From assembly GCA_021802705.1 (NCBI GenBank), contig JAJZRL010000001.1, positions 20,379-84,378 on the forward strand: 64,000 nucleotides of DNA, in the 5' to 3' direction. Positions 20,639-63,143 of this stretch are shown here, piece after piece; within the stretch, counting starts at the first letter, position 1, and each line of letters begins with the position of its first letter. The translations under genes and the position numbers were made by a program. The DNA comes from a bacterium. Lineage in GTDB: Bacteria; Patescibacteriota; Minisyncoccia; Phycocordibacterales; Phycocordibacteraceae. A model generated the notes under the pieces. That model was not told the origin of the DNA and searched no databases. It saw nothing but the letters and a program-made list of their open reading frames with translations.

Positions 20639-23416
20639 TCAGCGCGAGAGGTATCGCTCTCGTATCGCATTCTCAATGGTAGCACGGTCCCGTCCGTAGG
20701 TGAGTGCGGAAAGCTGGATAAGATCGGCCATTTGGGCATGGTTTGGCAGCGGCAGGTCCGGCGTATGCAGATCGAACGGTTTTTGCGGCACGCCACTCGC
20801 AAGGATCTTGACGTACGCGTTCCGGTTTTCCAAGTTGACGAAATCCAGAGCCGTAAAAACCGGAGCGAACTGTTTTTCGAAGAATTCGGCATCTTCTTCT
20901 CCGACGCGGAAAATCGCCATACTGCCGACGTTGCCGAAAACGGCGTTCCGCGTCTTCTCATCCACCTGCGCGAGAAACTGGTGCGCCATCGAAAGCGAGA
21001 GCTTGTACTTGCGCGCTTCCGAAAGGATGCCGGGGATCGAATCGGTCGTGATGTTCTGGAATTCATCGATATACAGGTAGAAAGGCGGACGCAACGCGTG
21101 CGGGCTGTCAGCACGCGAAAGCGCCGCCATGAAGAGCTTGCCGACGACGATAAGCCCGATCAGGTTCGCATTCCGTTCTCCGAGACGTCCTTTCGAAAGG
21201 TTAACGAGCAGAATCTTCCTCGTATCCATGACCTCGCGAAACTTAAACGAAGATTCCTGCTGTCCGACGATGGGGCGTATGAAATCGTTCGCGGTGAAAT
21301 CGTCGAATTTGTTCGTGATGTACGGCACGATGTTCTCAAGCGCCGCTTCGCCGCCGGCCTTTGTCGCAATCTCGTTCCAGAACTGATTGACGACGGGATT
21401 CATGCTTTTCGCGAGTTTTGCCCGCCTGAACTCGGCGCTCGAAAGGACGCGCGCGATATCGAGTATGGTCGAATCGCTGCTCGGGTCTTCCATCACGAGC
21501 AGCGTCGCGTTCCGGAAATACTGTTCGAACGCCGGCCCCATGCTCTCGGGCACGTCGCCATAGAGGCGGCGGAAGATCATGAGAAGCTCGTTGACGATGA
21601 ACGTCTTCTGTTCGGGCCGTGAAAGGTCGTACTCGAGGAAGTTGAGACCGAAGGGCCTGGAAAGATCCGCCGGATCGAAATAAATAACATCTCCGTATCG
21701 CTCCGGCGGCACGCTTGCGAGGATGTCGAGAATATCGGAACCGTGCGGGTCGATGAAACAGCAGCCTTCGCCGTTCCTGATATCCTGGATGATCATCGAC
21801 TTCATGAGACCGGTCTTACCGGTACCGGTCTGTCCGATGACATAGAGATGCCGCAGGCGATCCTCCGCACTCAGATAGACGCGCGTCTCGTGCCCCCGGT
21901 ACGTATTGATACCGAGAAGCGTGCCCGCCTGAGGAAGAGTGAGCGGTGCGGGAGCGTGCGTAAAACGTGCTTGTTTCAGATGCGGCGAGGAGCCGGTGTC
22001 GAACGTCGGGAAATGATAGACGGTCGTCAGTTCGTGCAGCGAAAGGGGAATCGCGGAAGGAGCCGGGAGCCGGAAAGAGAAATTGTCGAGAATATCCTGC
22101 GTGCGCCGGTCTCTTACGCGGGTGAACGAGAGCTTGTTCCCTTGCGTATTCGAAAACTGGTTAAACGCGGCTTCAAGTTCTCCGAGAATCTGTTCGGCTC
22201 TTCCCTTTTCCTGCGCTGAGACGACGAGACGCATCGTCGTGTCGACGATGGGTGAGGCGATTTTTTTCTCGATCTGTTCGATATGGGCCTTGTTCGCTTC
22301 GATCTGGCGGGTTTCCGCTTCTTTCTCTTTCTCTTCGTCTTTCGGCTTGTCCGAGAAGAGCGTCCGGCCGATATCACGAGCTACTTCTCCGAAGATGGTC
22401 TCCGGAGTGGCAAACGCCGCATTACTCTTCTCGCCCTTACGGAGCGCCTGGAGGATTTTCCGGTAATGCTTCACGTACCGGTCGCCTCGCGGCTCGACGA
22501 TAATCTGGAGCGCGACGCCTTCGCCTTCGTGCTTCACGTTGGCAAAGGCGTTGGTAACCGCATTGATCGGGTCATGATCGAAGTCGGCGTAATCTTTGAG
22601 AGGCAGTGCGGGATGCTCGGTGAATGCGGCGACAGACACGACAGAAGCGCCGCTGGAAACGAAGATGTTGTAATCCCTCGGTTGCGGCGTCACATGGGCG
22701 TCCGGGAAAACGGCAAGGAGCTGCTTTTCGAAAAGGTCGCGTTTCCCGTTCGGTACGGCGGCGTAAAATTGGAGTTCAGGGCTGTCCGAAGGTATGGCAA
22801 GCTCAAGCGCGTAATACGAAGGTTCGCCGGGCAGGGCATCGCCGACGGAAAGGAGTCCCGCATAAAACTGCTCCATCGCGGAAATGAGCTCTTTAAGCGG
22901 TCTTGTCTGCTTGTCCGGCCCGCCGTTTCTCGAGCCGGGGAGCGCGATCTCGTAGAGCGTCATGCGGAGCGCCCGAAAACGCGGCGCGCGCTCATCGCCG
23001 GAGGAAAGCGGCAATCCTGCAGCCACATAACGCACGAGATATCGGTGAAAATCGTCTGTAAGGTGCGGATCGTGGAGTTTTTCCAATACGGCAAGCGCAT
23101 TCTTGATGCCTCGTTCTTCGATCGTCCGCTGCAAGCTCTCGATCGCCTGCGTGTCGCTGCCAAGATTAAGTTCGGCAAGTATGCTCGAAGCGGCCGATTC
23201 GACCGCCGCCTCGTTCATACGGTATGCCGGTGCAAGCATCTCCTCGGCAGGTCTTGCATGGTGCGCGTGGATTTGTTCGGAAATGATCGCCGGACGCTCG
23301 ATCGCTGCGTCAGGCCGGACGCTCTGTGCCCGGACCTCCGCTTCCTTGCGAGCCACTTGCTCGCGCAGATATGCAAGCTCTTCTTCCGGCGTGGATAATG
23401 TAGGTAACGATTCCAT
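20639..23416 (-). CDS. VirB4/TraC-like type IV secretion (conjugation-type) P-loop ATPase
   Basis: Walker A VIGQTGTGKTGLMKS. Walker B/DEAW-like FYLYIDEFQN. AHQ motif. About 500-aa N-terminal non-ATPase domain as in VirB4/TraC (AAA_10). Confidence 0.55.
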   Translation of the reverse strand: MESLPTLSTPEEELAYLREQVARKEAEVRAQSVRPDAAIERPAIISEQIHAHHARPAEEMLAPAYRMNEAAVESAASSILAELNLGSDTQAIESLQRTIEERGIKNALAVLEKLHDPHLTDDFHRYLVRYVAAGLPLSSGDERAPRFRALRMTLYEIALPGSRNGGPDKQTRPLKELISAMEQFYAGLLSVGDALPGEPSYYALELAIPSDSPELQFYAAVPNGKRDLFEKQLLAVFPDAHVTPQPRDYNIFVSSGASVVSVAAFTEHPALPLKDYADFDHDPINAVTNAFANVKHEGEGVALQIIVEPRGDRYVKHYRKILQALRKGEKSNAAFATPETIFGEVARDIGRTLFSDKPKDEEKEKEAETRQIEANKAHIEQIEKKIASPIVDTTMRLVVSAQEKGRAEQILGELEAAFNQFSNTQGNKLSFTRVRDRRTQDILDNFSFRLPAPSAIPLSLHELTTVYHFPTFDTGSSPHLKQARFTHAPAPLTLPQAGTLLGINTYRGHETRVYLSAEDRLRHLYVIGQTGTGKTGLMKSMIIQDIRNGEGCCFIDPHGSDILDILASVPPERYGDVIYFDPADLSRPFGLNFLEYDLSRPEQKTFIVNELLMIFRRLYGDVPESMGPAFEQYFRNATLLVMEDPSSDSTILDIARVLSSAEFRRAKLAKSMNPVVNQFWNEIATKAGGEAALENIVPYITNKFDDFTANDFIRPIVGQQESSFKFREVMDTRKILLVNLSKGRLGERNANLIGLIVVGKLFMAALSRADSPHALRPPFYLYIDEFQNITTDSIPGILSEARKYKLSLSMAHQFLAQVDEKTRNAVFGNVGSMAIFRVGEEDAEFFEKQFAPVFTALDFVNLENRNAYVKILASGVPQKPFDLHTPDLPLPNHAQMADLIQLSALTYGRDRATIENAIRERYLSR

Positions 23417-24610: not shown

Positions 24611-26119
24611 TCAGCGGCTCCAGAGATGGAAGACCCAGTTTATGACGGAGAGCACGAGGCCGAAGAGGAGCGCCGTCCAGAATCCCGCGACAGAAAATCC
24701 GGGGACGAGAGCGGCAGCAAGCATGATGAGGAGCGCGTTGATGACAAGCGAAAAGAGGCCGAGCGTAAGAATCGTAATGGGAAGCGCGAGGAGAAGGAGG
24801 GCGGGCCGGATGAAGAGATTGAGCGCGCCCAAGACGATCGCAGCGATAAACGCACCGGTGAGCGTTATGGTCACGCCGGGGACGATATACGCCGCCACGC
24901 CGATCGCGAGCGCGGCGACAAGCCAGTGGGAGAAAAGCTTCATACGAGAGAGTGTAGCAAGAAACGGGAATCTTGCATTGCCGCCGCCTTCCTCAAGCTC
25001 GGGCTCGCGTCCCTCCGCTGAAGGGAATCCCGTGAGGAAGAATATCGCCGCGATCGTCGAAAGAGGGACCGCAAGCACGATACCGAGCGACCCGACGATA
25101 GCCCGCGCGATCTCCGTCGCGAACATCTCGCGGTTTATCGTCTCCAGAAACGTCTCGCCCCCGTAAGACTGGAAAAGCAGAAGGAGCGGGAGCGCGGCGC
25201 CGACATAGGCGATTGCGAGCGTATTGACGAGCGCGCCGATATGCTCCCGGCCCATACGCATCGCCCGCGCGAAAAGCTGGTACGGAGACACGTGCGGCGA
25301 AGCCCGCAGGAGCTCTTCCACCGCGACGGCCTGCCCTATCGCCGCGTCGTACAGGATCCCGAGCGCGCCGATAAGCATCGCGCCGAGAAGAAGGCCGATG
25401 AAATCAAAATGTCCGTGCATGGCAAAACTGAGATCGACGGTGTTTTCGTCGGAGATACCCGAAAGCTGCAGCGCGCCTATCACCGCATGCGCGATGAATG
25501 TCGTAACGACAACCGTCGCGATAAGCCCGAGAACGGCGGCGCTCGTCGTACGGTTTATGCCATGCGTGAGGAAAGATCCGAAAATGACGATAAGGGAAGA
25601 GACGCCGAAAGCGACCAGGAACGGATTGTATCCGGCCACGATACCGGGAAGGAGCACATAGAACACGAGCATGATGCTCGCGGAAAGGGCGAGGAGCCCC
25701 CGCAGCCCGGTCCAACCGCCGATAAGGATGACGGCAAGAACGAATAAGCCGAGCAGCATCCCGAGCGCATTCAGACGGTCAGGCTCAAGCATGACGTAGC
25801 GGTCGGCTCCCGCGCTTCCGCTGCGGGTCAGGAAGAACGTGTCACCGGGGCGCAGCGGAGAACGATCGTTCTCCACCGTCACGGTCTTTCCTTCATCGCT
25901 TCCGGAGAGGACGAGCGCCGAAAGCATCTGGTACGTCGCCGAATTGTCGGTACCGGGTATATTCCTGATCTGCGTGCTCTCGACGGAAAGCACGCGCGCT
26001 TTCTCGACAGAGACGGATGATTCGCTCGAAGTCGCCGTCGCCGGTGCGGAAGCTTGCGCGTGCGTAACGGTTACGGGAAGCGCGAGGAGAAAAAGCGGAA
26101 TGACGAGGATACGGAACAT
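24611..26119 (-). CDS. YibE/F-like polytopic membrane protein fused to a C-terminal DUF360/phage-holin-4-like four-helix module
   Basis: Signal peptide, about 100-aa exported segment, then 6+ TM helices resembling the YibE/F family. The last 120 aa (IVPGVTITLTGAFIAAIVLGALNLFIRPALLLLALPITILTLGLFSLVINAL...) resemble the DUF360/holin superfamily IV. Confidence 0.4.
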   Translation of the reverse strand: MFRILVIPLFLLALPVTVTHAQASAPATATSSESSVSVEKARVLSVESTQIRNIPGTDNSATYQMLSALVLSGSDEGKTVTVENDRSPLRPGDTFFLTRSGSAGADRYVMLEPDRLNALGMLLGLFVLAVILIGGWTGLRGLLALSASIMLVFYVLLPGIVAGYNPFLVAFGVSSLIVIFGSFLTHGINRTTSAAVLGLIATVVVTTFIAHAVIGALQLSGISDENTVDLSFAMHGHFDFIGLLLGAMLIGALGILYDAAIGQAVAVEELLRASPHVSPYQLFARAMRMGREHIGALVNTLAIAYVGAALPLLLLFQSYGGETFLETINREMFATEIARAIVGSLGIVLAVPLSTIAAIFFLTGFPSAEGREPELEEGGGNARFPFLATLSRMKLFSHWLVAALAIGVAAYIVPGVTITLTGAFIAAIVLGALNLFIRPALLLLALPITILTLGLFSLVINALLIMLAAALVPGFSVAGFWTALLFGLVLSVINWVFHLWSR

Positions 26120-26882: not shown

Positions 26883-27587
26883 TTATTTTGCCAACTCCGT
26901 GTCGATTGCCGCCTTGAAGTTCGCGTAAGGGTATGCGCCCTGGATGAGCTGTGTGCCGATGATGAAGGAAGGCGTCGCATTGATGCCGAATTTCTGCGCT
27001 TCGGTCCGGTCGGCATCGATTGCCGTGTCATACGCAGCTTTGTTGGCCGCGACAGTCTCTTTCACCTTGTTTACGTCGATACCGGAAACCGATCCCGTCA
27101 CCTTCAAGAGCCACGCGAGGTTCGCGCTCGCGTCGAGGCTGTTCTCTTGCGGCTGCTCGGCATAAAACGCGGTGCGCCAGGCGAAGAACTTGTCAGGATA
27201 GAGCGCCCATATCGCACGGGCGTACTCGGCATCGACCATAGAGTTCGGGCCAAGGAACTCGAAATCCTTGAAGACGACTTTGACTTTTCCGGCGTTCACA
27301 TAATCCTGGATGATCTGCGGCAGTGTCGTGACTTCGAACTGCTTGCAGAAAGGACACTGGTAATCCGACCACTCGACGAGCGTAACCGGCGCGTTCTGAT
27401 TTCCGATATAAGGCTCTCCGTCGAGAGATACGTCTTTGACGTTTACCGCCTGTCCCGTCCCCGCGCTCGGTGCCGCTGGTGCAGCGGGGTGCGACCCGTT
27501 CCAAAAAACCGCGCCCGCGATAAAAAGGCCCGCAAGCACCACCGCTGCCGGCAAAAGCAGCTTATTGCTCATCTCATTGGTATTCAT
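26883..27587 (-). CDS. DsbA-like thiol:disulfide oxidoreductase
   Basis: Signal/TM anchor + CPFC active site (EWSDYQCPFCKQF). Thioredoxin fold. Confidence 0.75.
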   Translation of the reverse strand: MNTNEMSNKLLLPAAVVLAGLFIAGAVFWNGSHPAAPAAPSAGTGQAVNVKDVSLDGEPYIGNQNAPVTLVEWSDYQCPFCKQFEVTTLPQIIQDYVNAGKVKVVFKDFEFLGPNSMVDAEYARAIWALYPDKFFAWRTAFYAEQPQENSLDASANLAWLLKVTGSVSGIDVNKVKETVAANKAAYDTAIDADRTEAQKFGINATPSFIIGTQLIQGAYPYANFKAAIDTELAK

Positions 27588-29820: not shown

Positions 29821-31047
29821 TCAGTGCCCCGCCATCGGCTGTTCGACCCCGTTAAAGATAGCGGGATTAGCCGGTCCTGTTACATGGAGCACGCCCCAGG
29901 CACCGCGGTCGATGCGCGCGAGCGCGTGATCGACGAGGACATAATTGCCCGGTTCAAGCAGCTTGAAGTCGACGACGGTCGCGCCGCCGGCAGGAACGAG
30001 CGTCGTCTGCACATCGGTCAAAGGCGGACTTGTGAGCGAGCCCTCTTCGTACACATGGTCGAATATCTCGCCGATGACATGGAAGCTCGAGATGAGGTTT
30101 ACCCCGCCATTCCCGAAAAAGATGCGCACCGTCTGCCCCGCTTTCGCCTGCATCGTACTTGTTCCGGTGAGCGCTCCCGTGCGGCCATTGAAAACGATGT
30201 ACTGCGGCGTTCCGGCGAGAAAAGCGTCGGAATCGAATATCTGGAGACCCTGCTGGCCGAGGAGGCCGGTCGTGTAGAACTCGCCCTGCATGACATAGAA
30301 CTCCTTATCGACTTTCGGCAGGCCGCCCTTCGGCTCGACGAGGATGAGGCCGTACTGCCCGTGAGCCATGTGCACCGCCGGATCCGGATTCGCGCAGTGA
30401 TAGACGAAAAGCCCGGGGTGAAGCGCGGTGAAGGTGAGAGTTTTCGTTTCGCCCGGTTTTGCGGAGAGCACGCCGGCCCCGCCGCCCGGGCCGATGACGG
30501 CATGGAAATCGATCGTGTGCGAGTGCAGGCTCGTCGCGTCGTTATGGAATGTCACGACGACCGTATCGCCCTGCATCACTCGCAGGAACGGCCCGGGCAC
30601 GGTACCGTCGAATGTCCAGTAATTCTGGTACACACCGGGCGCAATCTCGCCGATGACCTCCTTCGCGGTGATGCTCACGTGGTCGGTCGTGGTCGCCGTA
30701 CGCGTTATGGGCGGCGGAATGTCATTCGGGTTGCGAGCGATGTCCTTCACCTGTTCGAACTGACCGAAATGCCGGAAGAAGGCGATGATGTTTCCAAACG
30801 GAAGCCCGGGGCTTCCGGCAGGGCCGTAACTGGTGATGAACGAGGTCGAACCGAAACCGCGCGGAAGGCCGTTTGGAACGTAGAAGAAAATAAAGATACC
30901 GATGAAGACCGCGCACAAGAGAAGCGTAATCCGGAGAGAATGGAATCGACGGAGAATGATGAAAAGCAGGGCCGCAGCCGCGCTAAACGCGATTACGAGA
31001 CCGAGCGTCCGAATAAAGACGTACGAGAGGAGAGAAAGAAGGACCAT
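29821..31047 (-). CDS. nirK: Copper-containing nitrite reductase (NirK-type two-domain multicopper protein) with about 100-aa N-terminal membrane anchor
   Basis: Type-1/type-2 Cu ligand motifs HNDATSLHSHTIDFHA and VYHCANPDPAVHMAHGQYG. Three N-terminal TM helices. Confidence 0.75.
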   Translation of the reverse strand: MVLLSLLSYVFIRTLGLVIAFSAAAALLFIILRRFHSLRITLLLCAVFIGIFIFFYVPNGLPRGFGSTSFITSYGPAGSPGLPFGNIIAFFRHFGQFEQVKDIARNPNDIPPPITRTATTTDHVSITAKEVIGEIAPGVYQNYWTFDGTVPGPFLRVMQGDTVVVTFHNDATSLHSHTIDFHAVIGPGGGAGVLSAKPGETKTLTFTALHPGLFVYHCANPDPAVHMAHGQYGLILVEPKGGLPKVDKEFYVMQGEFYTTGLLGQQGLQIFDSDAFLAGTPQYIVFNGRTGALTGTSTMQAKAGQTVRIFFGNGGVNLISSFHVIGEIFDHVYEEGSLTSPPLTDVQTTLVPAGGATVVDFKLLEPGNYVLVDHALARIDRGAWGVLHVTGPANPAIFNGVEQPMAGH

Positions 31048-47663: not shown

Positions 47664-48224
47664 CTATTGCGGCAATACTGTCGCGCCCGGACAGAAACTG
47701 AAGCCGAGGTTCAGTCCCGAAAATTGCGAATTAACTCGGTCGGGCACGCTAACCATATAGTCGAGCTGGCACATCTGAGCCTGTGTAATACCGAGACGAT
47801 TCATAAGGTACTGCTCTGCCTGTAATCGCACCGATCCTATCGGCTCTTGCAAGAGAGCGATATTGAAATAATGCGTTGTACTGATGTAGGTGATGATGTA
47901 GGGAGGATTCGCCGTTGCGGTCGGATCGGGAACACCCTCGCTTACATGATATCCGAGATAATAATAGCCTGTATTAATAGGATCTTTTACCGTTGTCGGG
48001 TCAGTGATGAAATTATTAGTCTGTACGGTTGAAGAAGTGCCACCGCTCCCGGTAGCCAAACTATTCGGCTGAGGAACGGAAGCTGCTGTAGGTAATCCGA
48101 CATTTTGATTAGTTGAAGAATCGGCTGTCTGTGTTCTCGGTCCGGCAAACGTAAAGGCGAGCGTAGCAAGTCCGCCTGCCACGAGTATCCCGACAATGAT
48201 GATGATTGTGACTGGTTTACTCAT
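47664..48224 (-). CDS. Hypothetical membrane-anchored/secreted protein (186 aa)
   Basis: N-terminal TM IIIIVGILVAGGLATLAF, then Ser/Thr/Pro-rich linker and a Tyr-rich globular part. Confidence 0.4.
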   Translation of the reverse strand: MSKPVTIIIIVGILVAGGLATLAFTFAGPRTQTADSSTNQNVGLPTAASVPQPNSLATGSGGTSSTVQTNNFITDPTTVKDPINTGYYYLGYHVSEGVPDPTATANPPYIITYISTTHYFNIALLQEPIGSVRLQAEQYLMNRLGITQAQMCQLDYMVSVPDRVNSQFSGLNLGFSFCPGATVLPQ

Positions 48225-48232
48225 ACTAATTA

Positions 48233-49159
48233 TTAAGGACCATACTGCTGTATGCAGGAGGCCGCTTTACTGTTGCAATTCGCGCAAGTCCAGTCCTTAT
48301 AGCCATTTTGTGATACTAATGTCTGTGCGACCTGTGCGTTACACGCCGCGTTCTGACAGCTTGAAAAGAAGTTGGAGCACGCACCTGTCGCGTATTTGTT
48401 CCAGGTTGTTTGTGTTATTTGAAAAGTGCCGCAGGCGGTCGAGTTAGAGCCGGGGTGCGTGGTGTTATAGGGAGGTGTACTAGGAATCCCAGAGCTCTCG
48501 GTCACCGCAATACAAGACATCACATTCGCTTGGGTCGCTGTAAACCCTGCCGCCTGCAAGGCTGCAGGACTGCATGCGGTATTGCCACTGGAACACTGTG
48601 CGAGAGTGCCGCCGCTTGGCGTGACGGTACTGCCGCTCACACTTACGCCTGACGGCGCTGTCGGTTGCGACACGGAACCGGCCTGAGGGAGACAAAACGG
48701 AGCGCCGCCAGAAGAGACGAGCGAGTACCAGGTGCCGCCGGCGGCCGCGGGGTTATAGAGCACCGCCATAACAGCGTCGACGATAAGCCACGCGGCGAGC
48801 GCAATGACGATACCGAGAATGGTGTTCAGCAAGATCGTCTTGGCACGGCCGATACCGTTCGGACTGAACGGATTTATAACATAGAGAAACCCGGCATACG
48901 CGATCATGATCGGAGCGACGAAAACGATGGCGAGCGTAATGAGGAGGCTTATGATGTTATTGACGACCGTCATGAGCATTCCCCAACCCGCGGGACAGGT
49001 GGCCTGGTTTGCGGTCTGGGGAATGATCGGACCGAAAAATGGTATCGCCGCATAGGCGAAATGCGGCAAAACAAACAATCCTATCGCAAAAACAGAAAGA
49101 AGAGTGGCGCGGAAGCGCATACGCATGTATATATAATACCGTATCGCAAAACCGCGCAC
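48233..49159 (-). CDS. Fusion protein: signal peptide + VirB2/TrbC-like two-helix pilin module + Ser/Gly linker + Cys-rich lysozyme-like (SLT-like) domain
   Basis: Two hydrophobic helices with basic loop (IISLLITLAIVFVAPIMIAYAGFLYVI...GRAKTILLNTILGIVIALAAWLIVDAV) like the small pilin paralogs at 58.5-61.2 kb. C-terminal VTESSG...STACGTFQIT resembles ES...GLMQ transglycosylase motifs. Ten Cys in the last 110 aa. Confidence 0.4.
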   Translation of the reverse strand: MRGFAIRYYIYMRMRFRATLLSVFAIGLFVLPHFAYAAIPFFGPIIPQTANQATCPAGWGMLMTVVNNIISLLITLAIVFVAPIMIAYAGFLYVINPFSPNGIGRAKTILLNTILGIVIALAAWLIVDAVMAVLYNPAAAGGTWYSLVSSGGAPFCLPQAGSVSQPTAPSGVSVSGSTVTPSGGTLAQCSSGNTACSPAALQAAGFTATQANVMSCIAVTESSGIPSTPPYNTTHPGSNSTACGTFQITQTTWNKYATGACSNFFSSCQNAACNAQVAQTLVSQNGYKDWTCANCNSKAASCIQQYGP

Positions 49160-56551: not shown

Positions 56552-57706
56552 ATGGTTCTATTGCTATCACTGCTTCTAGCGTTTGCCGTACTCGCCATGA
56601 TGGTCCCGGGAATCCTTTTCTTCCTGCAGTGGCTTGCGGAGGAGAATATCCTCTTCACCACCGTGAAGGAAGGTACCGCGAAGGCCATCGTGCGCAGTAC
56701 GCGCGGCAACTCTTCGTTCAGCCGCCTCATCATGTCCTTCGCCGGATATCATCTGAATGCTTCGAAGAGCACATGGTATCGCGACGGATTTCCCGACTGG
56801 GAAGTCCTTTACCACGGCAAAGGTAATGGGAACGGATTCCCCGAAACTGACGATGAACATTATGACCGCCGATCGCGGCTGCTGAAGCATCTCGGCTTAT
56901 ACTGGGTCGGATGGCCCTGGGCCGAAAGCGTGTACGTGTATCAGTTCGAGTGGAACGAGACCTACACGAACGATCAGGGGAAAGAGGAGGTGCTTCCGCG
57001 CGCCAAAGCGACCGATTTCATCTATATCGCCGATTTCACCTATGCCATCGTAACGGAAGGCGCCGAAACAAAGGATCGTCTTTCGACCGACGAGCTCACG
57101 CTCGTGACGGTCGCGATACGGAATCCCTACCGTGCGCTTTTCAGCGGAGAAGATTGGATGCGGCGTATCACGGCCGCGATCAATCGCCATGTCCGGAATT
57201 TTGTCGGGAATCAAGTCTACAAAGACCTCATCTCCTCGACAGATTGGACGGCGTTCTCCGCTCCCGTTATCGAGCTCAATGCAAAACTGCCGGACGACAA
57301 GGACGGCACTTCTCCTTGCGGATTGCTCGGCCGGTACGGCGTAGAGATACGCACGGCCGACCTGCAGACCATCGAGCTCTCCGGAGAAGGAAAGAAACAG
57401 CATCAAGAAGCCGCGACGAGAGAATATGTCGCGGGACAGAATGCGGAAGCGGAACGCATCCTCGGGAGAGCGAAGGCGGATGTCGTCGAAATGATGGGAG
57501 AAAAAGAGGCCTCTGCCCTTCACAAACGGCTGGAGGTTATCAAGGAACACGGCCGCGCCGGCGAGCTCCTCGCTCAGCTTGATGCAATACAGGAGTCTTC
57601 AAAAGGGGCAGGCAACACGATCGTATGGGCGAATAATCCGTTCGTGGCGCTTGCAGAAACTTTGAAATCCGGGAGATCCGAAACGAAAGAAGGAGGTGAG
57701 AAATGA
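56552..57706 (+). CDS. SPFH/band-7 (stomatin/prohibitin-like) membrane protein
   Basis: N-terminal TM then FTTVKEGTAKAIVRSTRG... SPFH core. Ala/Glu-rich C-terminal helix (AEAERILGRAKADV...) typical of the family. AGGAGA SD. Confidence 0.5.
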   Translation: MVLLLSLLLAFAVLAMMVPGILFFLQWLAEENILFTTVKEGTAKAIVRSTRGNSSFSRLIMSFAGYHLNASKSTWYRDGFPDWEVLYHGKGNGNGFPETDDEHYDRRSRLLKHLGLYWVGWPWAESVYVYQFEWNETYTNDQGKEEVLPRAKATDFIYIADFTYAIVTEGAETKDRLSTDELTLVTVAIRNPYRALFSGEDWMRRITAAINRHVRNFVGNQVYKDLISSTDWTAFSAPVIELNAKLPDDKDGTSPCGLLGRYGVEIRTADLQTIELSGEGKKQHQEAATREYVAGQNAEAERILGRAKADVVEMMGEKEASALHKRLEVIKEHGRAGELLAQLDAIQESSKGAGNTIVWANNPFVALAETLKSGRSETKEGGEK

Positions 57707-58485
57707 ACGTGCTCTTGGCACTTTCCGTGGTGCTTATCATCCCGCTCGCCTTTGTCGTCATGCTCGTCATCATTCGGACGGGAAGGCCGCACTCCAGGAA
57801 GATGGCCGAAGAGCAAGGGCATCTGAACGTGAAAATAGGAGGGAGCAGCAATAGGGCCGCATACCCTCCTTCAACAGAGGGTTACGGTAAAGGGCTCAAA
57901 TGGTTTGGCGCGTGGCTCAAAAAGCTCGGCTCAAACCTGTGGTTTACGCTACTTGTCATCGCAGGTTGCGTGATCGCATACGAAGGGCTCTACGGCTCGG
58001 CTATAAAGAGCCCGCGGCCGAGCGAAGTCGGGATCTGGAGCTGGCAGCACTGGCTTCCGCTCCTTATCTTTTGGGGTATCCTTGCCACTCTCATCGCGCT
58101 TGGCGCGACGAAAGAGTGGAAGAAGACGCTCCAGAAGACAGTGGCGGCCGTCATGCTGACGCTTCTCGCGGGAGCCCTCATCATGAGCGGCGGACCTGCG
58201 GCGGTAGTCACCAGTGCAATGCCTTATCGCGACAACGTCGTCGGAAACCCGGGAGTGCTGATCATACCGCCGAAAGGAAGATCGAAGCTCGTCTCTGTTC
58301 CGCCTGGAACGCGTCTCGTGATGGTCGGAGAGGGGTTTGTCAACCATACCGTGTACAGTGATGGCCGCGATTGCGCTTTTGACGGGAACCCGTGTCCAAA
58401 CGGCGACGTCGTGGGGAGTTATGCGGTAAACGAAACGAACGAGACAAATACCGTTTCGTATACTTTCGCTCCAATCTACCCGTAG
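57703..58485 (+). CDS. Membrane protein co-transcribed with SPFH gene (possible NfeD-like partner with C-terminal beta domain)
   Basis: ATGA start/stop overlap with the upstream gene. Four or more TM helices then a Gly/Pro-rich beta-type C-terminal segment. The NfeD assignment is inference only. Confidence 0.35.
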   Translation: MNVLLALSVVLIIPLAFVVMLVIIRTGRPHSRKMAEEQGHLNVKIGGSSNRAAYPPSTEGYGKGLKWFGAWLKKLGSNLWFTLLVIAGCVIAYEGLYGSAIKSPRPSEVGIWSWQHWLPLLIFWGILATLIALGATKEWKKTLQKTVAAVMLTLLAGALIMSGGPAAVVTSAMPYRDNVVGNPGVLIIPPKGRSKLVSVPPGTRLVMVGEGFVNHTVYSDGRDCAFDGNPCPNGDVVGSYAVNETNETNTVSYTFAPIYP

Positions 58486-58511
58486 TTCCTTCGGATGATC
58501 TTTGAACGCAA

Positions 58512-58546
58512 AGACCGCACAGCAACTGTGCGGTCTTTTTCTTTTT
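58512..58546. terminator. Strong hairpin terminator, usable in both directions
   Basis: AGACCGCACAG-CAA-CTGTGCGGTCT followed by TTTTTCTTTTT on plus. Lies 20 nt beyond the end of the minus-strand pilin operon. Confidence 0.55.
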
Positions 58547-58565: not shown

Positions 58566-58856
58566 TTACGGCGAAGCGGTAGTAGAGGGGGGCGAAAACT
58601 TTTGTATCGGCGGAAGATTGAAGGAACCGAGAACGGTATTGACGATGCCGTATGCGCCGAAGATTATCACGAGCCCGATGATGCCCCAGAGGATAGCCCG
58701 TCGGCCGCTCCTGCGCTTTTCTTCGTCCCCGGCATTCGCAATGAACTCGAACACTCCCCAAACGAATACGACGAACGCGCCACCGGCTAAGAGAAGGATG
58801 ATCGGATTGACGATCTGCGTAACGACGTTTGCGAGAAACGCGTTAAGAACGGACAT
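58566..58856 (-). CDS. VirB2/TrbC-like pilin-family small membrane protein, paralog 1 (96 aa)
   Basis: Two hydrophobic helices separated by basic loop (…AGDEEKRRSGRRAILWGIIGLVIIFGAYGIV). Start overlaps the upstream stop (TAATG). Confidence 0.45.
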   Translation of the reverse strand: MSVLNAFLANVVTQIVNPIILLLAGGAFVVFVWGVFEFIANAGDEEKRRSGRRAILWGIIGLVIIFGAYGIVNTVLGSFNLPPIQKFSPPSTTASP

Positions 58857-59236
58857 TACGGCTTGACTTGTACACCCGTCTGCGGTGTTCCGCCAGTCGG
58901 TCCGGTGTTATTTCCGAACGTAACGGTTCCCGTAAGGATATTCACGAGACCCCAGATCGAAACCATGACAAAGAAACCGATAAGACCCCAGAGCATGAGG
59001 TTCTTCCCTTTCTCTTTCACTTCTCCGGAATTCGCGCCGAGAATAAAAGTAGTGAATGCACCCCACAGGAAGACGATGAATGCCACCGCGAAAAGCACCG
59101 GGACAATGACATTATTGATCAGGTTGATTACGAACGACCCGACGTCGGAGACATTGCTCAGCGTCTGCGCCGATGAAATGAGCGGCAAGGCGAATGCGGA
59201 AAGCGTTAGCGAAGTAAATGCGAGGACTTTTTTCAT
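58856..59236 (-). CDS. VirB2/TrbC-like pilin-family protein, paralog 2 (signal peptide, 126 aa)
   Basis: MKKVLAFTSLTLSAFALPLISSA signal, then ...NSGEVKEKGKNLMLWGLIGFFVMVSIWGLV. The internal Met at 59236 is preferred over the track start 59395. Confidence 0.45.
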   Translation of the reverse strand: MKKVLAFTSLTLSAFALPLISSAQTLSNVSDVGSFVINLINNVIVPVLFAVAFIVFLWGAFTTFILGANSGEVKEKGKNLMLWGLIGFFVMVSIWGLVNILTGTVTFGNNTGPTGGTPQTGVQVKP

Positions 59237-59316
59237 AAAGTGAATAAACGGATAATGGTGTAATTGTAACTTCCCTACACTGCCGGTCAACGGCGAGCCG
59301 GTGACCGTGTGGATAA

Positions 59317-59622
59317 CTAAAGCGTCGGATAGGCCGGCGCCGATCCGCCGGGGGAAAGATTGAGCGTGCTGCCGACGATGCCGACGAGCCCCCACACCGA
59401 CAGGATGACGACGAAACCGATGACGCCATAAAGGATAAATTTCCTACCCGTAGCGCGTTCGGTATCGCTCGCCGCGCCCAGGAAAAAATACCGGTACACG
59501 CCGAGGAAAAAGGTGAAGAGCGCGAGCGCCATCAAGATGGGCATCAGGATGCCGTTGATGATGTTCACGATGCTTGTGGCGTACCCTTGCAGGTATATCG
59601 TGTTGATGCCGGTAGTACCCAT
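59317..59622 (-). CDS. VirB2/TrbC-like pilin-family protein, paralog 3
   Basis: ...ASDTERATGRKFILYGVIGFVVILSVWGLVGIV shares the same two-helix architecture. Confidence 0.45.
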   Translation of the reverse strand: MGTTGINTIYLQGYATSIVNIINGILMPILMALALFTFFLGVYRYFFLGAASDTERATGRKFILYGVIGFVVILSVWGLVGIVGSTLNLSPGGSAPAYPTL

Positions 59623-59647
59623 AATTTGAATCGCGTTATTCTGCTAA

Positions 59648-60130
59648 TCAATACGACGTTGGGAGCGGCGGCGCGCTGTAACCGGCGAGCCCGAAGGTAT
59701 TCGCAACCACGTTTACGAGGCCCCACAAAGACACCATCACGACGAAACCGATGATGCCCCAGAGGATAAGCTTGTGTCCGCGCTCTGTTTTCGCCGGATC
59801 GCCGCGGGAAAAGATGTACGCATCAGCGACACCGAAAAGAAACACGAGAAAGGCGATCGCGAAAAGAAGAGGGACCAGGACGGAGTTGATGATCGCGAGG
59901 ATGGTGACCGCAACCTGGCAGATATTATTCGAGCCGCAGGCAAAGGCGTTCGTCCCCGCTCCCGACCCCCATCCGATCTGGAAATTCCCGTTATTGAAGT
60001 AGAAGCCGTTTGATGAAAAAGACGTATAGGAACCCGGACTGGAGATGGTAACGCCTGCAAACGCGAAAGACGGTGACACAAACACTATGACCGCTATAAG
60101 GAAGGAGACGGATCGTGCGACTGATTTCAT
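59648..60130 (-). CDS. VirB2/TrbC-like pilin-family protein, paralog 4 (signal peptide + extra Gly/Ser/Asn-rich N-terminal segment)
   Basis: MKSVARSVSFLIAVIVFVSPSFAFA signal. ...RGDPAKTERGHKLILWGIIGFVVMVSLWGLVNVV. Confidence 0.45.
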   Translation of the reverse strand: MKSVARSVSFLIAVIVFVSPSFAFAGVTISSPGSYTSFSSNGFYFNNGNFQIGWGSGAGTNAFACGSNNICQVAVTILAIINSVLVPLLFAIAFLVFLFGVADAYIFSRGDPAKTERGHKLILWGIIGFVVMVSLWGLVNVVANTFGLAGYSAPPLPTSY

Positions 60131-60152
60131 ATACGGAAAGTATGACACGGTC

Positions 60153-60422
60153 TTATGGCGATGGCGCAATGCCGAGCGTGGATAACATGATATTCACGAC
60201 CCCCCAGATAGCAAAGAGCAGCACCATGGCGAGAATACCCCATAGGATGAAATAGCGCCCCTCTTTCCGTTTCACTTCATTCCCGCCGTTAAGGAAGAAG
60301 TGGTCGACGACGCCCCAGATGAAAGCGATGAATGCGAACGCAAAGATGACCGGTATCACAACCGTATTGAAGACGCCGATGATGCCGGTCGTTCCGTTTC
60401 CGACGAACTGGGCGAAAGTCAT
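60153..60422 (-). CDS. VirB2/TrbC-like pilin-family protein, paralog 5
   Basis: ...NGGNEVKRKEGRYFILWGILAMVLLFAIWGVVNI. ATG 60422 abuts the upstream stop (TGATATG), which supports this start over 60467. Confidence 0.45.
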   Translation of the reverse strand: MTFAQFVGNGTTGIIGVFNTVVIPVIFAFAFIAFIWGVVDHFFLNGGNEVKRKEGRYFILWGILAMVLLFAIWGVVNIMLSTLGIAPSP

Positions 60423-60423
60423 A

Positions 60424-61224
60424 TCAACTGCCGACCGAAAGCGCCTGCACGGTCGCCTGGATGCCAAGCGCTATAGCCTCCGCGCCAAGAAGGATCAGGG
60501 CGCCGATGAGCGTATAGAGAAGCGCTCGCCTCGCCTCGCTTATCTTCCCCGGTTCGCCGCGTGCGACAATAAAAAGGAATCCGACGTAGACGAGCATGAA
60601 GATGACGATGATGGAGCCTATCTGCACGACAAACTGCAAGATGTCATTTAGAAGCGCGGGGAGGCTCGTACCGGCGCCAAGCGGATTGATAAGAGTAACA
60701 TTCTGCCCGGTGTTGCCGCCGCTCGATTGCGAGGAATTTCCGCCGCTCGATTGAGTCGTCGGCGATGGCGTGGACGGCGTATAAGCTGAACAGTAAAGAG
60801 ATCCGAATGCGGATTGGCATATGCCCGTAGTCCCGCTGCTCGTCACGCAGGAGGCGCCGATACTTGTGCACGTTGTCTGCGAAACTGAACCCGAGAGCGT
60901 GGTGAAAGACGCGCAGTAAAGAATCCCATTGGACGACTGGCACACGCCGGCAGCCCCGCTGCTCGTGGTGCACGAGTCGCCGGCGTTCATACACAAGGAG
61001 GACGTATTGCTGTTTGAGGTATTGCCTCCTCCTGATGACGAAGGGGACTGTGCCGGAAGGCAGACGTTTGCAGGATTGAGCGCGTTATCGCTTCCGCAGA
61101 CGCCCGATGCGCAGGCGCTGTTTGATATACAGGGTGTGCCGACGTCTTGATACCCCGCAAATGCCACCGGAGCAAACGCTAAAAAAGCGAAGAGGACGAA
61201 GGAGGCGGAACGTGAGGTTGCCAT
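60424..61224 (-). CDS. Secreted Cys-rich triple-repeat protein fused to C-terminal VirB2/TrbC-like pilin module
   Basis: Signal peptide. Three about 32-aa repeats with pattern C-x6-C-x(8-10)-G-x-CQS-x-x-G-x-LYC (8+ Cys). Ser/Gly linker. C-terminal two-helix module LQFVVQIGSIIVIFMLVYVGFLFIVARGEPGKISEARRALLYTLIGALILLG. Confidence 0.45.
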   Translation of the reverse strand: MATSRSASFVLFAFLAFAPVAFAGYQDVGTPCISNSACASGVCGSDNALNPANVCLPAQSPSSSGGGNTSNSNTSSLCMNAGDSCTTSSGAAGVCQSSNGILYCASFTTLSGSVSQTTCTSIGASCVTSSGTTGICQSAFGSLYCSAYTPSTPSPTTQSSGGNSSQSSGGNTGQNVTLINPLGAGTSLPALLNDILQFVVQIGSIIVIFMLVYVGFLFIVARGEPGKISEARRALLYTLIGALILLGAEAIALGIQATVQALSVGS

Positions 61225-61226
61225 TT

Positions 61227-62531
61227 TTATCGCAAGAGCGGATTGAGAGCGTTTTCAGCAGAAATAAGCGCAACATTCAGAGTCGAACCGCCGCTTATCA
61301 CGCTTCCAATCATACTTGAGAAAACGCGATCCGTATCCCCTGGCGTTGGGGACAACCATCCGTTCGCGTAAAGCGCTTCGGCATAAGAAACTGCCGCGAC
61401 AGGATCATTCGAGGGGATGGTCGCGAGCGCACTTAGGGTTGCCGGCGCGAGCCCTGTCGCAGCGGCAGCGACGTTTTGTCCGGGAGTGCTCGTAAGGAGG
61501 AGCGCTGCCTGATACGCTCCCGCCGGATTTTTAGCGCCGCGCGGGATCATAAAAGCGTAGACAAGACCGTAGGCGCTCTTTACGGGAGCCGTGGCCGGTT
61601 GCGGCAGAGGAGTCACGTTGAAATCGAGGTTCGGATTCGCCGCGCTCAGGAAGCGCGCTTCCGAAGCGAAGCCGAGATACAGTGCGAGGTCGCCCGAAAG
61701 GAAGGCCTGTTGCGAATCCGGCAACGAGGGATTCCAGGTATAAGAAACCTTCGAGGGATCGGCAAACTGCGTATAGAAGCCGAGTACGGCCTGCCCCGGG
61801 GGGACCGTGCTTGAATTTGCCTGACCGAGGTTTGCGGAAAGGATGTCGTTACCCGTATACGAAGAGATCGGTACGCCCTCCTGGAGGAAGAGGGCGGAAA
61901 GTATGCCGCGAGCGTCATGTACGTTGTCGTATGTCCCAAGAGCGATGAGACCGCGGGTAACCTGTTGCGTCGGGGTGAGAAGCGCGACCTGCGGCACGAG
62001 ACCCGTCAGCGCCTCCCACGTCGAAGGCGGGCTCGCGATACCGTCGGAAGAAAGGATGGAACGGTTCGAGAAAAGAACGAGCGGATCGACGAGGAACGGG
62101 ATGCCGTAATAACCGGCGCCGCCCGGTATGGTGAAAAGGTTCCCTTCTCCGACGAAGGAGCTCTGGAACGTGTGTACCGAAAGCGAAGAGAACGGTATCG
62201 GAACGATGAATTTCTTGAGCGAAAGCAGGTCCTCTTGCGAGGAGAGGATGAGGTCGGGCGCATTGCCGGTCGCTATCGCGGTGGCGAGGTCGGTTGAGAG
62301 CGTTTCGGGGTCCTTCTGCACGTACGAGATGTTCTTGAACGCGGTATTGGACTTCGTCGCGCTCGTGAGGACAGCGTCCATGCCGCTCTTCGGCAGCGTC
62401 CCCCATATGACGACATTGCCGACGGTATTGTTGGTGCTATGGCTCGTATAGGTCGCGAAGATGAAAAGACCGATAAGGGCGCTCACGCCGAAAGCGCCGA
62501 ATAAGATACTTTGGAATAAAGATATTTTCAT
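61227..62531 (-). CDS. Extracellular solute-binding protein (ABC-type, family-1/sugar-like), solitary
   Basis: N-terminal TM/signal. VVIWGTLP...GNAPDLIL...periplasmic binding protein fold pattern. No permease/ATPase genes adjacent. Confidence 0.5.
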   Translation of the reverse strand: MKISLFQSILFGAFGVSALIGLFIFATYTSHSTNNTVGNVVIWGTLPKSGMDAVLTSATKSNTAFKNISYVQKDPETLSTDLATAIATGNAPDLILSSQEDLLSLKKFIVPIPFSSLSVHTFQSSFVGEGNLFTIPGGAGYYGIPFLVDPLVLFSNRSILSSDGIASPPSTWEALTGLVPQVALLTPTQQVTRGLIALGTYDNVHDARGILSALFLQEGVPISSYTGNDILSANLGQANSSTVPPGQAVLGFYTQFADPSKVSYTWNPSLPDSQQAFLSGDLALYLGFASEARFLSAANPNLDFNVTPLPQPATAPVKSAYGLVYAFMIPRGAKNPAGAYQAALLLTSTPGQNVAAAATGLAPATLSALATIPSNDPVAAVSYAEALYANGWLSPTPGDTDRVFSSMIGSVISGGSTLNVALISAENALNPLLR

Positions 62532-63064
62532 GGGGCAGTAAAGATGATGCCGTAATGGTGCGGCCCTGCGCGAAATGACTTCACCTTATGGAAACCGCCG
62601 TTAATAAAGAGATCCTCGGCTTCGTGTTCGGAAACGACCTTGTCGGACGCCGGCCCCATGCCGCCGTAACTGCCGGCCCAATCGACGAGCATGAGCTTGC
62701 CGTCCGGTTTTAACACGCGTTTTATTTCTTCAAGAAGGCCCAGGCGGTTCTCGATCTGGAAAAGCGTATTGGCAAGGATGATCGCGTCAAGCGTATCGTC
62801 GCGCAGGTGCGTACCGCCGGGTTTTTCGATATCACCCCAGAGCGTCTCGATGACATGCCGATGATGGTCATGCGTATTGAGCTTCAGGTGCTTGAGAACG
62901 TCTTCCTGCACGTCGACCGCATAGACTTTTCCGCTTTCTCCGACGATGCCGGCTGCCGCGCGCGCATAATGGCCGCTGCCGGCGCCGAAATCACCAACCT
63001 TCATGCCTTCGTGTAGCCCGAGCTGCAGCACATTCTCACGCGGGTCGCTGAAATGGGCACTCAT
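62528..63064 (-). CDS. Class I SAM-dependent methyltransferase
   Basis: Motif I VGDFGAGSGHYARAAA. Motif post-I VYAVDVQ. LKPDGKLMLVDW. Confidence 0.75.
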   Translation of the reverse strand: MSAHFSDPRENVLQLGLHEGMKVGDFGAGSGHYARAAAGIVGESGKVYAVDVQEDVLKHLKLNTHDHHRHVIETLWGDIEKPGGTHLRDDTLDAIILANTLFQIENRLGLLEEIKRVLKPDGKLMLVDWAGSYGGMGPASDKVVSEHEAEDLFINGGFHKVKSFRAGPHHYGIIFTAP

Positions 63065-63143
63065 GATTCTTATAAAATACCACAGGTAAATCGCGCTAGC
63101 GCCGCGAAATCAACATGTGAGCGATTCAGACGAGAATGACGTT

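Follow-up and report, generated by a model that had tools for sequence, protein, structure and literature searches.

The 64,000-nucleotide stretch analysed here (contig JAJZRL010000001.1 of assembly GCA_021802705.1, referred to in its full length as the window) comes from a bacterium of the Patescibacteriota and carries, from 61224 down to 58566 on the minus strand, six consecutive genes for small membrane proteins, A to F (pilins 1 to 6). The proteins are members of the Pfam family PF18895 (T4SS_pilin) and have in common a two-helix hairpin fold and a characteristic distribution of charged residues and cysteines; their genes form a fixed set within an operon that also holds a methyltransferase and a solute-binding protein (SBP), and a promoter lies inside the array. 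On balance, the locus appears to be the Kaiserbacteria/Paceibacteria version of the PF18895 array, an eight-gene operon serving a hetero-oligomeric structure built by a type IV secretion system (T4SS). These six consecutive minus-strand genes had been recognized in an earlier note on this DNA, and their coordinates are refined here (Table 1).

Arrays of this kind have been published. In a survey of 3,035 Patescibacteria genomes based on PF04956 and PF18895, Quinonero-Coronel et al. (2025, PMC12102498) recorded VirB2-like pilins in 1,948 assemblies; 441 arrays of 2–11 genes were counted, arrays occurred in 383 assemblies, and the identity within them averaged 25% with a maximum of 54%. A pilin gene was found near virB4 (within about 20 genes) in 1,135 of the 1,948 assemblies, i.e. 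such proximity is common, not obligatory. The pilin series inside the T4SS cluster of Southlakia is essential (Wang et al. 2023, PMC10633639), and the tables of that study place six PF18895 genes, SEML1_0014–0019, beside a VirB6-like gene in Southlakia epibionticum; the six essential Southlakia genes are termed VirB2-like pilins in PMC12857230. The window array resembles these Southlakia and other patescibacterial arrays in its Pfam family, in the tandem arrangement of six divergent two-helix genes, some of them with signal peptides, in its monoderm ultrasmall host and in the low identity of its paralogs (here 24–44%). In contrast to the Southlakia array, it lies outside the T4SS cluster, between gyrA and infB, and has a methyltransferase and an SBP in the operon, an internal promoter and cysteine-rich passenger domains. 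The SBP, the co-operonic methyltransferase and the cysteine-rich fusions are unmentioned in the three studies (PMC12102498, PMC10633639, PMC12857230), and the fixed SBP/methyltransferase linkage, the constant order and positional orthology of the six pilins, the cysteine-rich passengers and the promoter of pilin 5 were not found described.

The T4SS and its pilin array are essential in the sole genetically tractable patescibacterium; among monoderms, a pilus would be without precedent. The present locus, from organisms that are uncultivated, adds testable structure (topology, a fixed set, a link to an SBP) to the question of what the T4SS of Patescibacteria does.

Family membership and fold of the six pilins

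All six proteins match PF18895, with pilins 1, 3, 4, 5 and 6 above the gathering score of 26.6 bits and pilin 2 below it (individual scores in Table 1). The orthologs of pilin 2 measure 85–89 residues in all relatives and carry precomputed PF18895 matches, some of them marked weak, and pilin 2 itself matches the family NF045849 with E 9e-5. This family, the Mbov_0395 group of pilin-like conjugal transfer proteins from Mycoplasma integrative conjugative elements, is the closest curated family in NCBIfam, and the six window proteins match nearly the whole of its 80-residue model. Only pilin 4 (43.3 bits) exceeds the curated equivalog cut-off of 40 bits; pilins 6, 5, 3, 2 and 1 stay below it with 38.1, 32.7, 30.4, 22.1 and 15.6 bits, respectively, and all 30 proteins of positions 2 to 6 from six genomes match with E ≤ 1e-3 (best 2e-11). 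As judged by these profiles, pilins 2 to 6 appear to be homologs of the NF045849 family, not equivalogs, and they differ from it further in being six paralogs in a chromosomal housekeeping context, not part of a mobile element. The match fits the reported kinship of Patescibacteria VirB4 with monoderm (MPF-FATA) systems.

The first description of the array as VirB2/TrbC pilins stands in the sense of the literature, in which PF18895 proteins are VirB2-like pilins (PMC12102498, PMC12857230) and to which the array belongs on its profile matches, but is not supported in that of the canonical family PF04956, for which the best score was 20.7 bits (pilin 1; pilin 6, 16.3; pilin 5, 13.4) against a gathering score of 27.9 bits. 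Relatives of pilin 1 give recurrent sub-threshold TrbC matches (21–23 bits, E ≈ 1e-4), each time to one and the same stretch of the profile, and the pilin-1 profile aligned with five VirB2/TrbC proteins of MPF_T plasmids, a small reference alignment, with a probability of 21% (E 1e-3, 39 columns). The window pilins resemble canonical TrbC/VirB2 proteins (PF04956; Agrobacterium VirB2, RP4 TrbC, F TraA) in size, two-helix hairpin, basic loop and predicted topology, and in the signal peptide that some of them possess. They differ in their sub-threshold sequence similarity, in the absence of adjacent virB3/virB4 genes, in being six different subunits instead of one major pilin, in their large terminal passengers and in the monoderm host. 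Type IV (PilA-like) pilins were ruled out with HMMs (hidden Markov models), as had been proposed: no N_methyl or pilin Pfam family matched at E ≤ 1, and the six N termini lack the motif of a class III prepilin leader (G/FxxxE).

Hydropathy and charge maps confirm for each of the six proteins the two hydrophobic helices and the basic loop described previously, the loop being rich in lysine and arginine and 10–14 residues long. The WG(L/I)IG motif reported with them is found in pilins 2, 3, 5 and 6 as LWG(I/L)(I/L)(G/A), but pilin 4 reads LYGVIG and pilin 1 LYTLIG at this place. Pilins 2 to 6 follow the consensus ...ILWGIIGFVV..S.WGLVN..., from which pilin 1 is more divergent; its homology to pilins 2 to 6 is indicated by hhalign (probability 93.7%, E 2e-7). 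Over local alignments the six window paralogs are 24–44% identical. Signal-peptide-like N termini occur in pilins 1, 3 and 5 only, while pilins 2, 4 and 6 begin 12–20 residues before helix 1. AlphaFold2 (AF2) models pilin 1, run with 64 homologs, as a hairpin of residues 188–223 and 226–264 (pLDDT 80–89) with disordered linkers, and pilin 5 as a hairpin of residues 29–66 and 71–108 (pLDDT 70–78).

Lysine and arginine are concentrated in the loop between the helices and where helix 2 begins, hardly any being found in the mature tails at either end, and all cysteines of the pilins are located in N- or C-terminal tails. By the positive-inside rule, this charge pattern predicts a cytoplasmic loop with both termini outside. 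That disulfide-rich and lysozyme-like domains are fused at either terminus (see below) likewise argues for two extracellular termini, and for the module as a display or anchoring device. VirB2 and TraA are known to have this topology, with outward-facing termini and a cytoplasmic loop, and in the solved structures of F- and T-pili the termini point toward the outer surface and the loop toward the lumen, so that terminal fusions would lie outside.

Operon layout, promoters and conservation

The methyltransferase and SBP genes stand directly upstream of the array in the same orientation, as noted before and confirmed by Pfam and by the junctions: the stop of the methyltransferase gene overlaps the SBP start (ATGA), and the SBP gene is followed by pilin 1 as TAAaaATG. 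The methyltransferase obtains only generic matches in NCBIfam. Translational coupling had been proposed for the array as a whole. It is real at the pilin 1/2 junction (TGAtATG, the start of pilin 2 lying 1 nt past the stop of pilin 1) and at the pilin 5/6 junction (TAATG, start overlapping stop), but the remaining junctions, pilins 2/3, 3/4 and 4/5, are gapped by 22, 25 and 80 nt, the last gap containing a conserved promoter. Tight coupling is thus confined to two of five pilin–pilin junctions, and the array is not uniformly translationally coupled.

The promoter before pilin 5 agrees with the consensus at 10 of 12 positions and is of near-consensus sigma-70 type; it is the sole instance of TTGACN-N15-17-TAYAAT in the window, where 0.03 would be expected. 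Together with the TATCCACA box it is conserved in 66 of the 73 sequences compared (those of 72 relatives and of the window), mostly 54 nt 5' of the ATG, and is followed by a short, conserved leader that lacks a Shine-Dalgarno sequence. A TATCCAC-like sequence recurs in this leader as a second copy after the upstream TATCCACA box, and the two could serve as paired operator sites. With a mean identity of 77%, pilin 5 is moreover the best conserved of the six positions, and because of its own conserved promoter and this conservation it is a candidate for the major subunit.

A further conserved element immediately precedes the methyltransferase gene. Its palindrome is degenerate in the window, and most of 58 relatives show the same arrangement with unchanged spacing from the gene. 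This conservation is consistent with a transcription unit starting there, and from its sequence the element is a candidate for such a start (an extended -10 with a leaderless mRNA) and/or for the gyrA terminator. A search of the region from 58 to 64 kb with Rfam returned no RNA family. At the other end of the operon, the hairpin between pilin 6 and the convergent membrane-protein gene has a strong T-run on the plus strand only and is likely to act as terminator for both.

Table 1. Coordinates of the operon and of related features in the window
Feature	Position	Strand	Description
Upstream element	63065..63114	-	GTTGATT, GC-rich palindrome, then TGGTATTTTATAAG (also given as TGGTATTTTATAGG); directly 5' of methyltransferase ATG
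Methyltransferase	62528..63064	-	class I, S-adenosylmethionine-dependent, 178 aa, cytoplasmic, first operon gene; Pfam Methyltransf_31/11/25
SBP	61227..62531	-	family 1 (MalE-like), 434 aa; SBP_bac_8 and SBP_bac_1
Pilin 1 (A)	60424..61224	-	266 aa; PF18895 36.4 bits
Cys unit R1 of pilin 1	61060..61131	-	aa 32-55, spacing 5-4-11
Cys unit R2 of pilin 1	60913..60993	-	aa 78-104, spacing 6-9-8
Cys unit R3 of pilin 1	60790..60870	-	aa 119-145, spacing 6-9-8
Two-helix module of pilin 1	60424..60711	-	preceded by conserved NVTLINPL motif before helix 1
Pilin 2 (B)	60153..60422	-	89 aa, no signal peptide; PF18895 22.3 bits
Pilin 3 (C)	59648..60130	-	160 aa, signal peptide; PF18895 31.9 bits
Pilin 4 (D)	59317..59622	-	101 aa, no signal peptide or extension; PF18895 37.3 bits
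Internal promoter	59263..59315	-	TATCCACA box 59308..59315; TTGACC-16 nt-TACAAT 59263..59290; before pilin 5
Pilin 5 (E)	58856..59236	-	126 aa, signal peptide; PF18895 31.4 bits
Pilin 6 (F)	58566..58856	-	96 aa, no signal peptide; PF18895 46.0 bits
Hairpin	58510..58538	.	13-bp, GC-rich, between convergent pilin 6 and 260-aa membrane-protein gene
Seventh pilin-module gene	48233..49159	-	pilin-1-type module (aa ~60-135), then Cys-rich lysozyme-like SLT_3 (PF18896) at the C terminus
ATPase	20639..23416	-	925 aa; Pfam DUF87, TraG-D_C; partial NCBIfam TraD, VirD4-like (CD1115)

When one genome was scanned for each species, a relative of pilin 1 turned up in 221 species, and the best 80 of these 221 loci were analysed further, their gene order being assigned with position-specific HMMs; 74 loci were evaluable for the linkage to methyltransferase and SBP and 68 for the order of the pilins. 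In 74 of 74 species-level relatives pilin 1 comes after the methyltransferase and the SBP, with the SBP directly between the other two, and the 4-nt overlap of methyltransferase and SBP genes is kept in 37 of them. The order 1-2-3-4-5-6 is retained in 62 of 68 loci, the exceptions being duplications or re-assignments, so that the paralogs are syntenic in relatives, as the earlier note had asked. In the five relatives for which called genes and Pfam tables were read, gyrA is followed by the methyltransferase (178 residues), the SBP (431–436 residues), six PF18895 genes, two convergent membrane genes and rbfA-infB, and the window itself, with housekeeping genes throughout, is chromosomal DNA from a Kaiserbacteria-like member of the Paceibacteria, in agreement with the names of its homologs.

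An identity matrix of the pilin positions in six genomes, with 180 cross-genome best-match comparisons, yielded a best match on the same position in 172 cases; identities ranged from 53 to 77% within positions and from 25 to 46% between them. These values argue that the six pilins are old, non-redundant positional orthologs, which in turn speaks against an interchangeable repertoire of variants and does not bear out the "diversified repertoire" proposed at first. The positional orthology argues instead for a hetero-oligomeric structure.

Two observations concern the genomes surveyed. The metagenome-assembled genome BP5.bin105 contains two diverged copies of the operon (loci L009/L010, contigs JAJXUQ010000031 and JAJXUQ010000044), which likely reflect two strains or species binned together and not a true duplication. 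Several loci titled Saccharibacteria, Hydrogenedentes or Bacillota (L026, L029, L033, L039, L040, L084 and others) carry a Kaiserbacteria-type operon in the same order; these records are probably mislabelled or derive from contaminated bins.

Cysteine-rich heads and other passengers

Pilin 1 begins with a signal peptide (residues 1–23, 61156..61224), followed by 12 cysteines in three four-cysteine units, in agreement with the initial report of a signal peptide and at least eight cysteines. The Ser/Gly linker described before its pilin module is likewise present, Ser/Gly/Thr/Asn/Gln linkers lying between the cysteine units and before NVTLINPL. The repeats had been described as triplicated with fixed spacing. 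This is correct for R2 and R3, but R1 has a spacing of its own. R2 and R3 agree at 17 of 33 residues and are 60% identical in their nucleotides, and since their spacing is also identical, they are best read as an old duplication, with R1 a different module. In the AF2 model R2 and R3 form small three-stranded beta units (pLDDT 84–90). The possibility that the repeats are an assembly artefact, raised in the earlier note, is ruled out: Tandem Repeats Finder detected no repeat at the DNA level in the gene of pilin 1, and the same 4.7 kb occur in two other public assemblies with 100% and 99.98% identity.

Public gene calls (loci L089 and L090; protein P0001) begin pilin 1 at the internal Met79, giving 188 instead of 266 residues, whereby the signal peptide and R1 are lost and a 236-nt "gap" is left behind the SBP. 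The full-length orthologs P0002 and P0003 (54–58% identical, 12 cysteines) support the long form, and database architectures for the pilin-1 family may be systematically truncated.

Fusion of cysteine-rich segments to a pilin module, which had seemed unusual, is the rule in this clade. Among the best 120 pilin-1 homologs, with lengths from 146 to 444 residues, 103 have cysteines N-terminal to the pilin module; the counts extend from 0 to 20, most commonly 4 (55 proteins), with 8, 12, 16 and 20 also represented. R1-type units of relatives match the models DUF7107, Dickkopf_N or EB, and no Pfam family matched the cysteine region of the window pilin 1, including R2 and R3. A search with R2+R3 among 1.84 billion cluster representatives gave six matches, of which two are real; the other four were rejected as NHL-like repeats with low-complexity similarity only. 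Both real matches, P0241 and P0245, are SGL/NHL beta-propeller proteins with 7–11 tandem copies of the unit (C-x6-C-x9-C-x8-C, ending G.LYC), so that outside pilins the R2/R3 unit recurs only in these two among the representatives searched. When Foldseek compared the modelled pilin 1 with the PDB, nothing reached E < 1, colipase and maurocalcin aligning with the cysteine units at E ≈ 3. A DsbA-like thioredoxin-fold protein, relevant to disulfides in the heads, is encoded at 26883..27587 on the minus strand.

Passengers are not restricted to pilin 1. Pilin 3 has an N-terminal extension with a conserved cysteine pair (CGSNNIC) before its pilin module. The pilin 4 position bears N- or C-terminal extensions in relatives, up to 310 residues with three C-terminal cysteine repeats; in locus L004 pilin 4 has C-terminal cysteine repeats and matches an EB module (30.7 bits), in L006 C-terminal cysteine repeats are found on pilin 3, and pilin 1 of relatives may bear a long C-terminal tail.

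A seventh gene with a pilin module lies some distance from the array (Table 1). Its product scores 28.7 bits with SLT_3 and 18.2 bits with PF18895, and the comparison of its module with the pilins, suggested in the earlier note, gave a clear relationship to the pilin-1 profile (hhalign probability 96%, E 4e-9). The fusion has 619 homologs, in many of which PF18895 and PF18896 occur together, and by its domain composition the protein is a candidate wall hydrolase of the VirB1-like kind, with a pilin module as its anchor. Its true start is probably an internal Met giving 295 residues, as in the public gene call, so that the GTG in the list of open reading frames (ORFs) is probably too far upstream. 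The gene is followed by one for a 186-residue single-span protein (47664..48224), and relative L096 has a 171-residue gene at this place.

Possible functions and neighbouring genes

A sequence of events can be proposed for the T4SS-built structure. The six pilins would be inserted in the membrane, pilins 1, 3 and 5 by way of their Sec signal peptides and the other three without, and a T4SS encoded elsewhere in the genome would extract them to form one hetero-oligomeric filament or a conduit spanning the envelope. Pilin 5 would supply the bulk of the subunits, the others being minor and specialised. Pilin 1 would act as carrier, its flexible Ser/Gly/Thr linker holding three small disulfide-bonded domains outside, and these heads may be species-variable adhesins that recognise the host cell; the DsbA-like protein of the window could form their disulfides. 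In the seventh gene product, the pilin-1-type module would anchor the lysozyme-like domain, and this fusion may open the cell wall. The co-transcribed SBP might capture a host-derived sugar at the structure, or itself be a glycan-binding adhesin.

Several points weigh against this reading. Homology of the array to VirB2/TraA pilins of known structure cannot be demonstrated: pilins 2 to 6 reach an hhalign probability of 0.3% with the small MPF_T VirB2 reference alignment, their profile finds no pilin among PDB sequences (chance matches to membrane helices only), and Foldseek of the pilin-1 model gives nothing significant. Pilus assembly has been shown for no member of PF18895 (PMC12857230). The operon sits between gyrA and infB in housekeeping surroundings in all relatives checked, and among the larger ORFs of the 64-kb window, scanned with the Pfam domains VirB4, VirB6 and PrgI, no VirB4, VirB6 or VirB3/PrgI was found. 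Since the whole region is syntenic in the clade, the adjacency of methyltransferase and SBP could in part reflect general conservation of gene order and not function. Both the division into major and minor subunits and the adhesin function are no more than our inference.

The SBP lends itself to a different explanation. It matches SBP_bac_8 (E 3.7e-22, 79.9 bits) and SBP_bac_1 (1.1e-18, 68.7 bits), it matches sugar-binding proteins of the PDB (4r9f and 4qrz, E 1.5e-8), and it has an N-terminal membrane anchor, i.e. one hydrophobic segment at residues 9–27 with no lipobox. No ABC permease or ATPase gene adjoins it, either in the window or in those five relatives whose gene calls were read. It had been called an orphan, and the survey of 74 relatives identifies it as a fixed partner of the array. 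Among the matches listed (more than 120 clusters) the SBP is 67–76% identical, and the pilin-1 module 40–76% over best local alignments. Such an invariably co-transcribed, sugar-type SBP connects the array, in a way open to test, with the capture of nutrients or the recognition of glycans.

In the main rival reading the pilins would form no filament at all, and instead a membrane-embedded hetero-oligomer (6 × 2 = 12 helices) which, with the tethered SBP, would constitute a novel kind of uptake or sensing complex, dependent on a binding protein and independent of any T4SS. We consider this unlikely. It would account for an SBP that is coupled in 74 of 74 relatives through overlapping or abutting junctions and is more conserved than the pilins, for the lack of ABC permease, ATPase or T4SS genes nearby, and for a six-member set that is fixed, non-redundant and constant in order, and it sits well with the homology to true pilus subunits not being demonstrable. 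However, PF18895 genes elsewhere in Patescibacteria adjoin virB4/virB6 with no SBP (PMC12102498; Southlakia tables), the family is related to proteins of Mycoplasma conjugative elements (NF045849), the bulky and variable cysteine-rich or lysozyme-like passengers suit surface display better than the core of a transporter, and a strong promoter serving two of six subunits argues against equal stoichiometry.

A bolder combination, which we hold to be quite improbable, would be a host-tapping organelle of a new type in which a hetero-oligomeric conduit of six fixed pilin subunits, pilin 1 bearing a Cys-knot adhesin, is functionally coupled to the tethered sugar-binding SBP. If true, the SBP would feed host-derived molecules into the pilin channel or receive them from it, and import dependent on a binding protein would take place without an ABC permease, the route being a pilus of T4SS type or else a 12-helix pore derived from pilins.

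The idea that the array stores interchangeable pilin variants for antigenic or host-range variation derives from Bartonella and Anaplasma, in whose T4SS tandem VirB2 paralogs are read as variation repertoires (PMC12102498), and it was raised for Patescibacteria in the same study. As in those bacteria, several divergent pilin genes stand in a row here, the paralogs being only 24–44% identical, and the extensions of pilins 1, 3 and 4 differ strongly between species. In contrast to the VirB2 paralogs of Bartonella and Anaplasma, each window paralog is a conserved positional ortholog (172 of 180 best matches, 53–77% identity within positions), 62 of 68 species have kept the full set of six in its order, neither recent duplicates nor DNA repeats capable of promoting recombination are present, and the variation is concentrated in the appended heads, not in the presence of the core genes. 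A variation repertoire is accordingly very improbable. Finally, support is negligible for unrelated small membrane proteins of holin-like, immunity or toxin type with a superficial likeness to pilins, an outcome that the earlier note had named as fatal to its own proposal, since the weak Pfam matches to Phage_holin_3_6 (E 0.099; 13.1 bits against a cut-off of 28.4 bits) and Saf_2TM (E 0.12) fall far below their cut-offs, PF18895 is above its cut-off in five of six proteins, no phage or toxin context exists in the window, and the operon is chromosomal and conserved in at least 74 species.

For an ATPase of 925 residues, previously taken as VirB4-like and adduced together with the array for a diversified surface-filament/adhesin repertoire, the VirB4 assignment is not supported. 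The protein matches TraD, the VirD4-like family CD1115 and TraG-D_C, is encoded 35 kb away among housekeeping neighbours, has no transmembrane segment by hydropathy and is flanked by genes for an 802-residue low-complexity protein, FKBP and TGT. By its domain matches it resembles a coupling protein, not VirB4. Coupling-protein-like ATPases occur throughout Patescibacteria, mostly far from virB4 (PMC12102498). The adjacent 802-residue protein (18216..20624, minus strand) is a Glu/Pro/Ser-rich low-complexity sequence with one hydrophobic segment and no Pfam match, and is not VirB4-like.

Convergent with the array on the plus strand (56552..58485) are genes for an SPFH/Band_7-like protein of 384 residues and for a polytopic membrane protein of 260 residues with a cysteine-containing C-terminal domain; of the 80 relatives, about two-thirds have a detected homolog of one or both beside their own array. 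Elsewhere on the minus strand, a gene at 24611..26119 codes for a 502-residue protein in which a YibE/F-like membrane domain is joined to a C-terminal four-helix domain of the type Phage_holin_4_2, an unusual fusion, and a multicopper-oxidase-like protein is encoded at 29821..31047, in a group of organisms that generally lack respiration.

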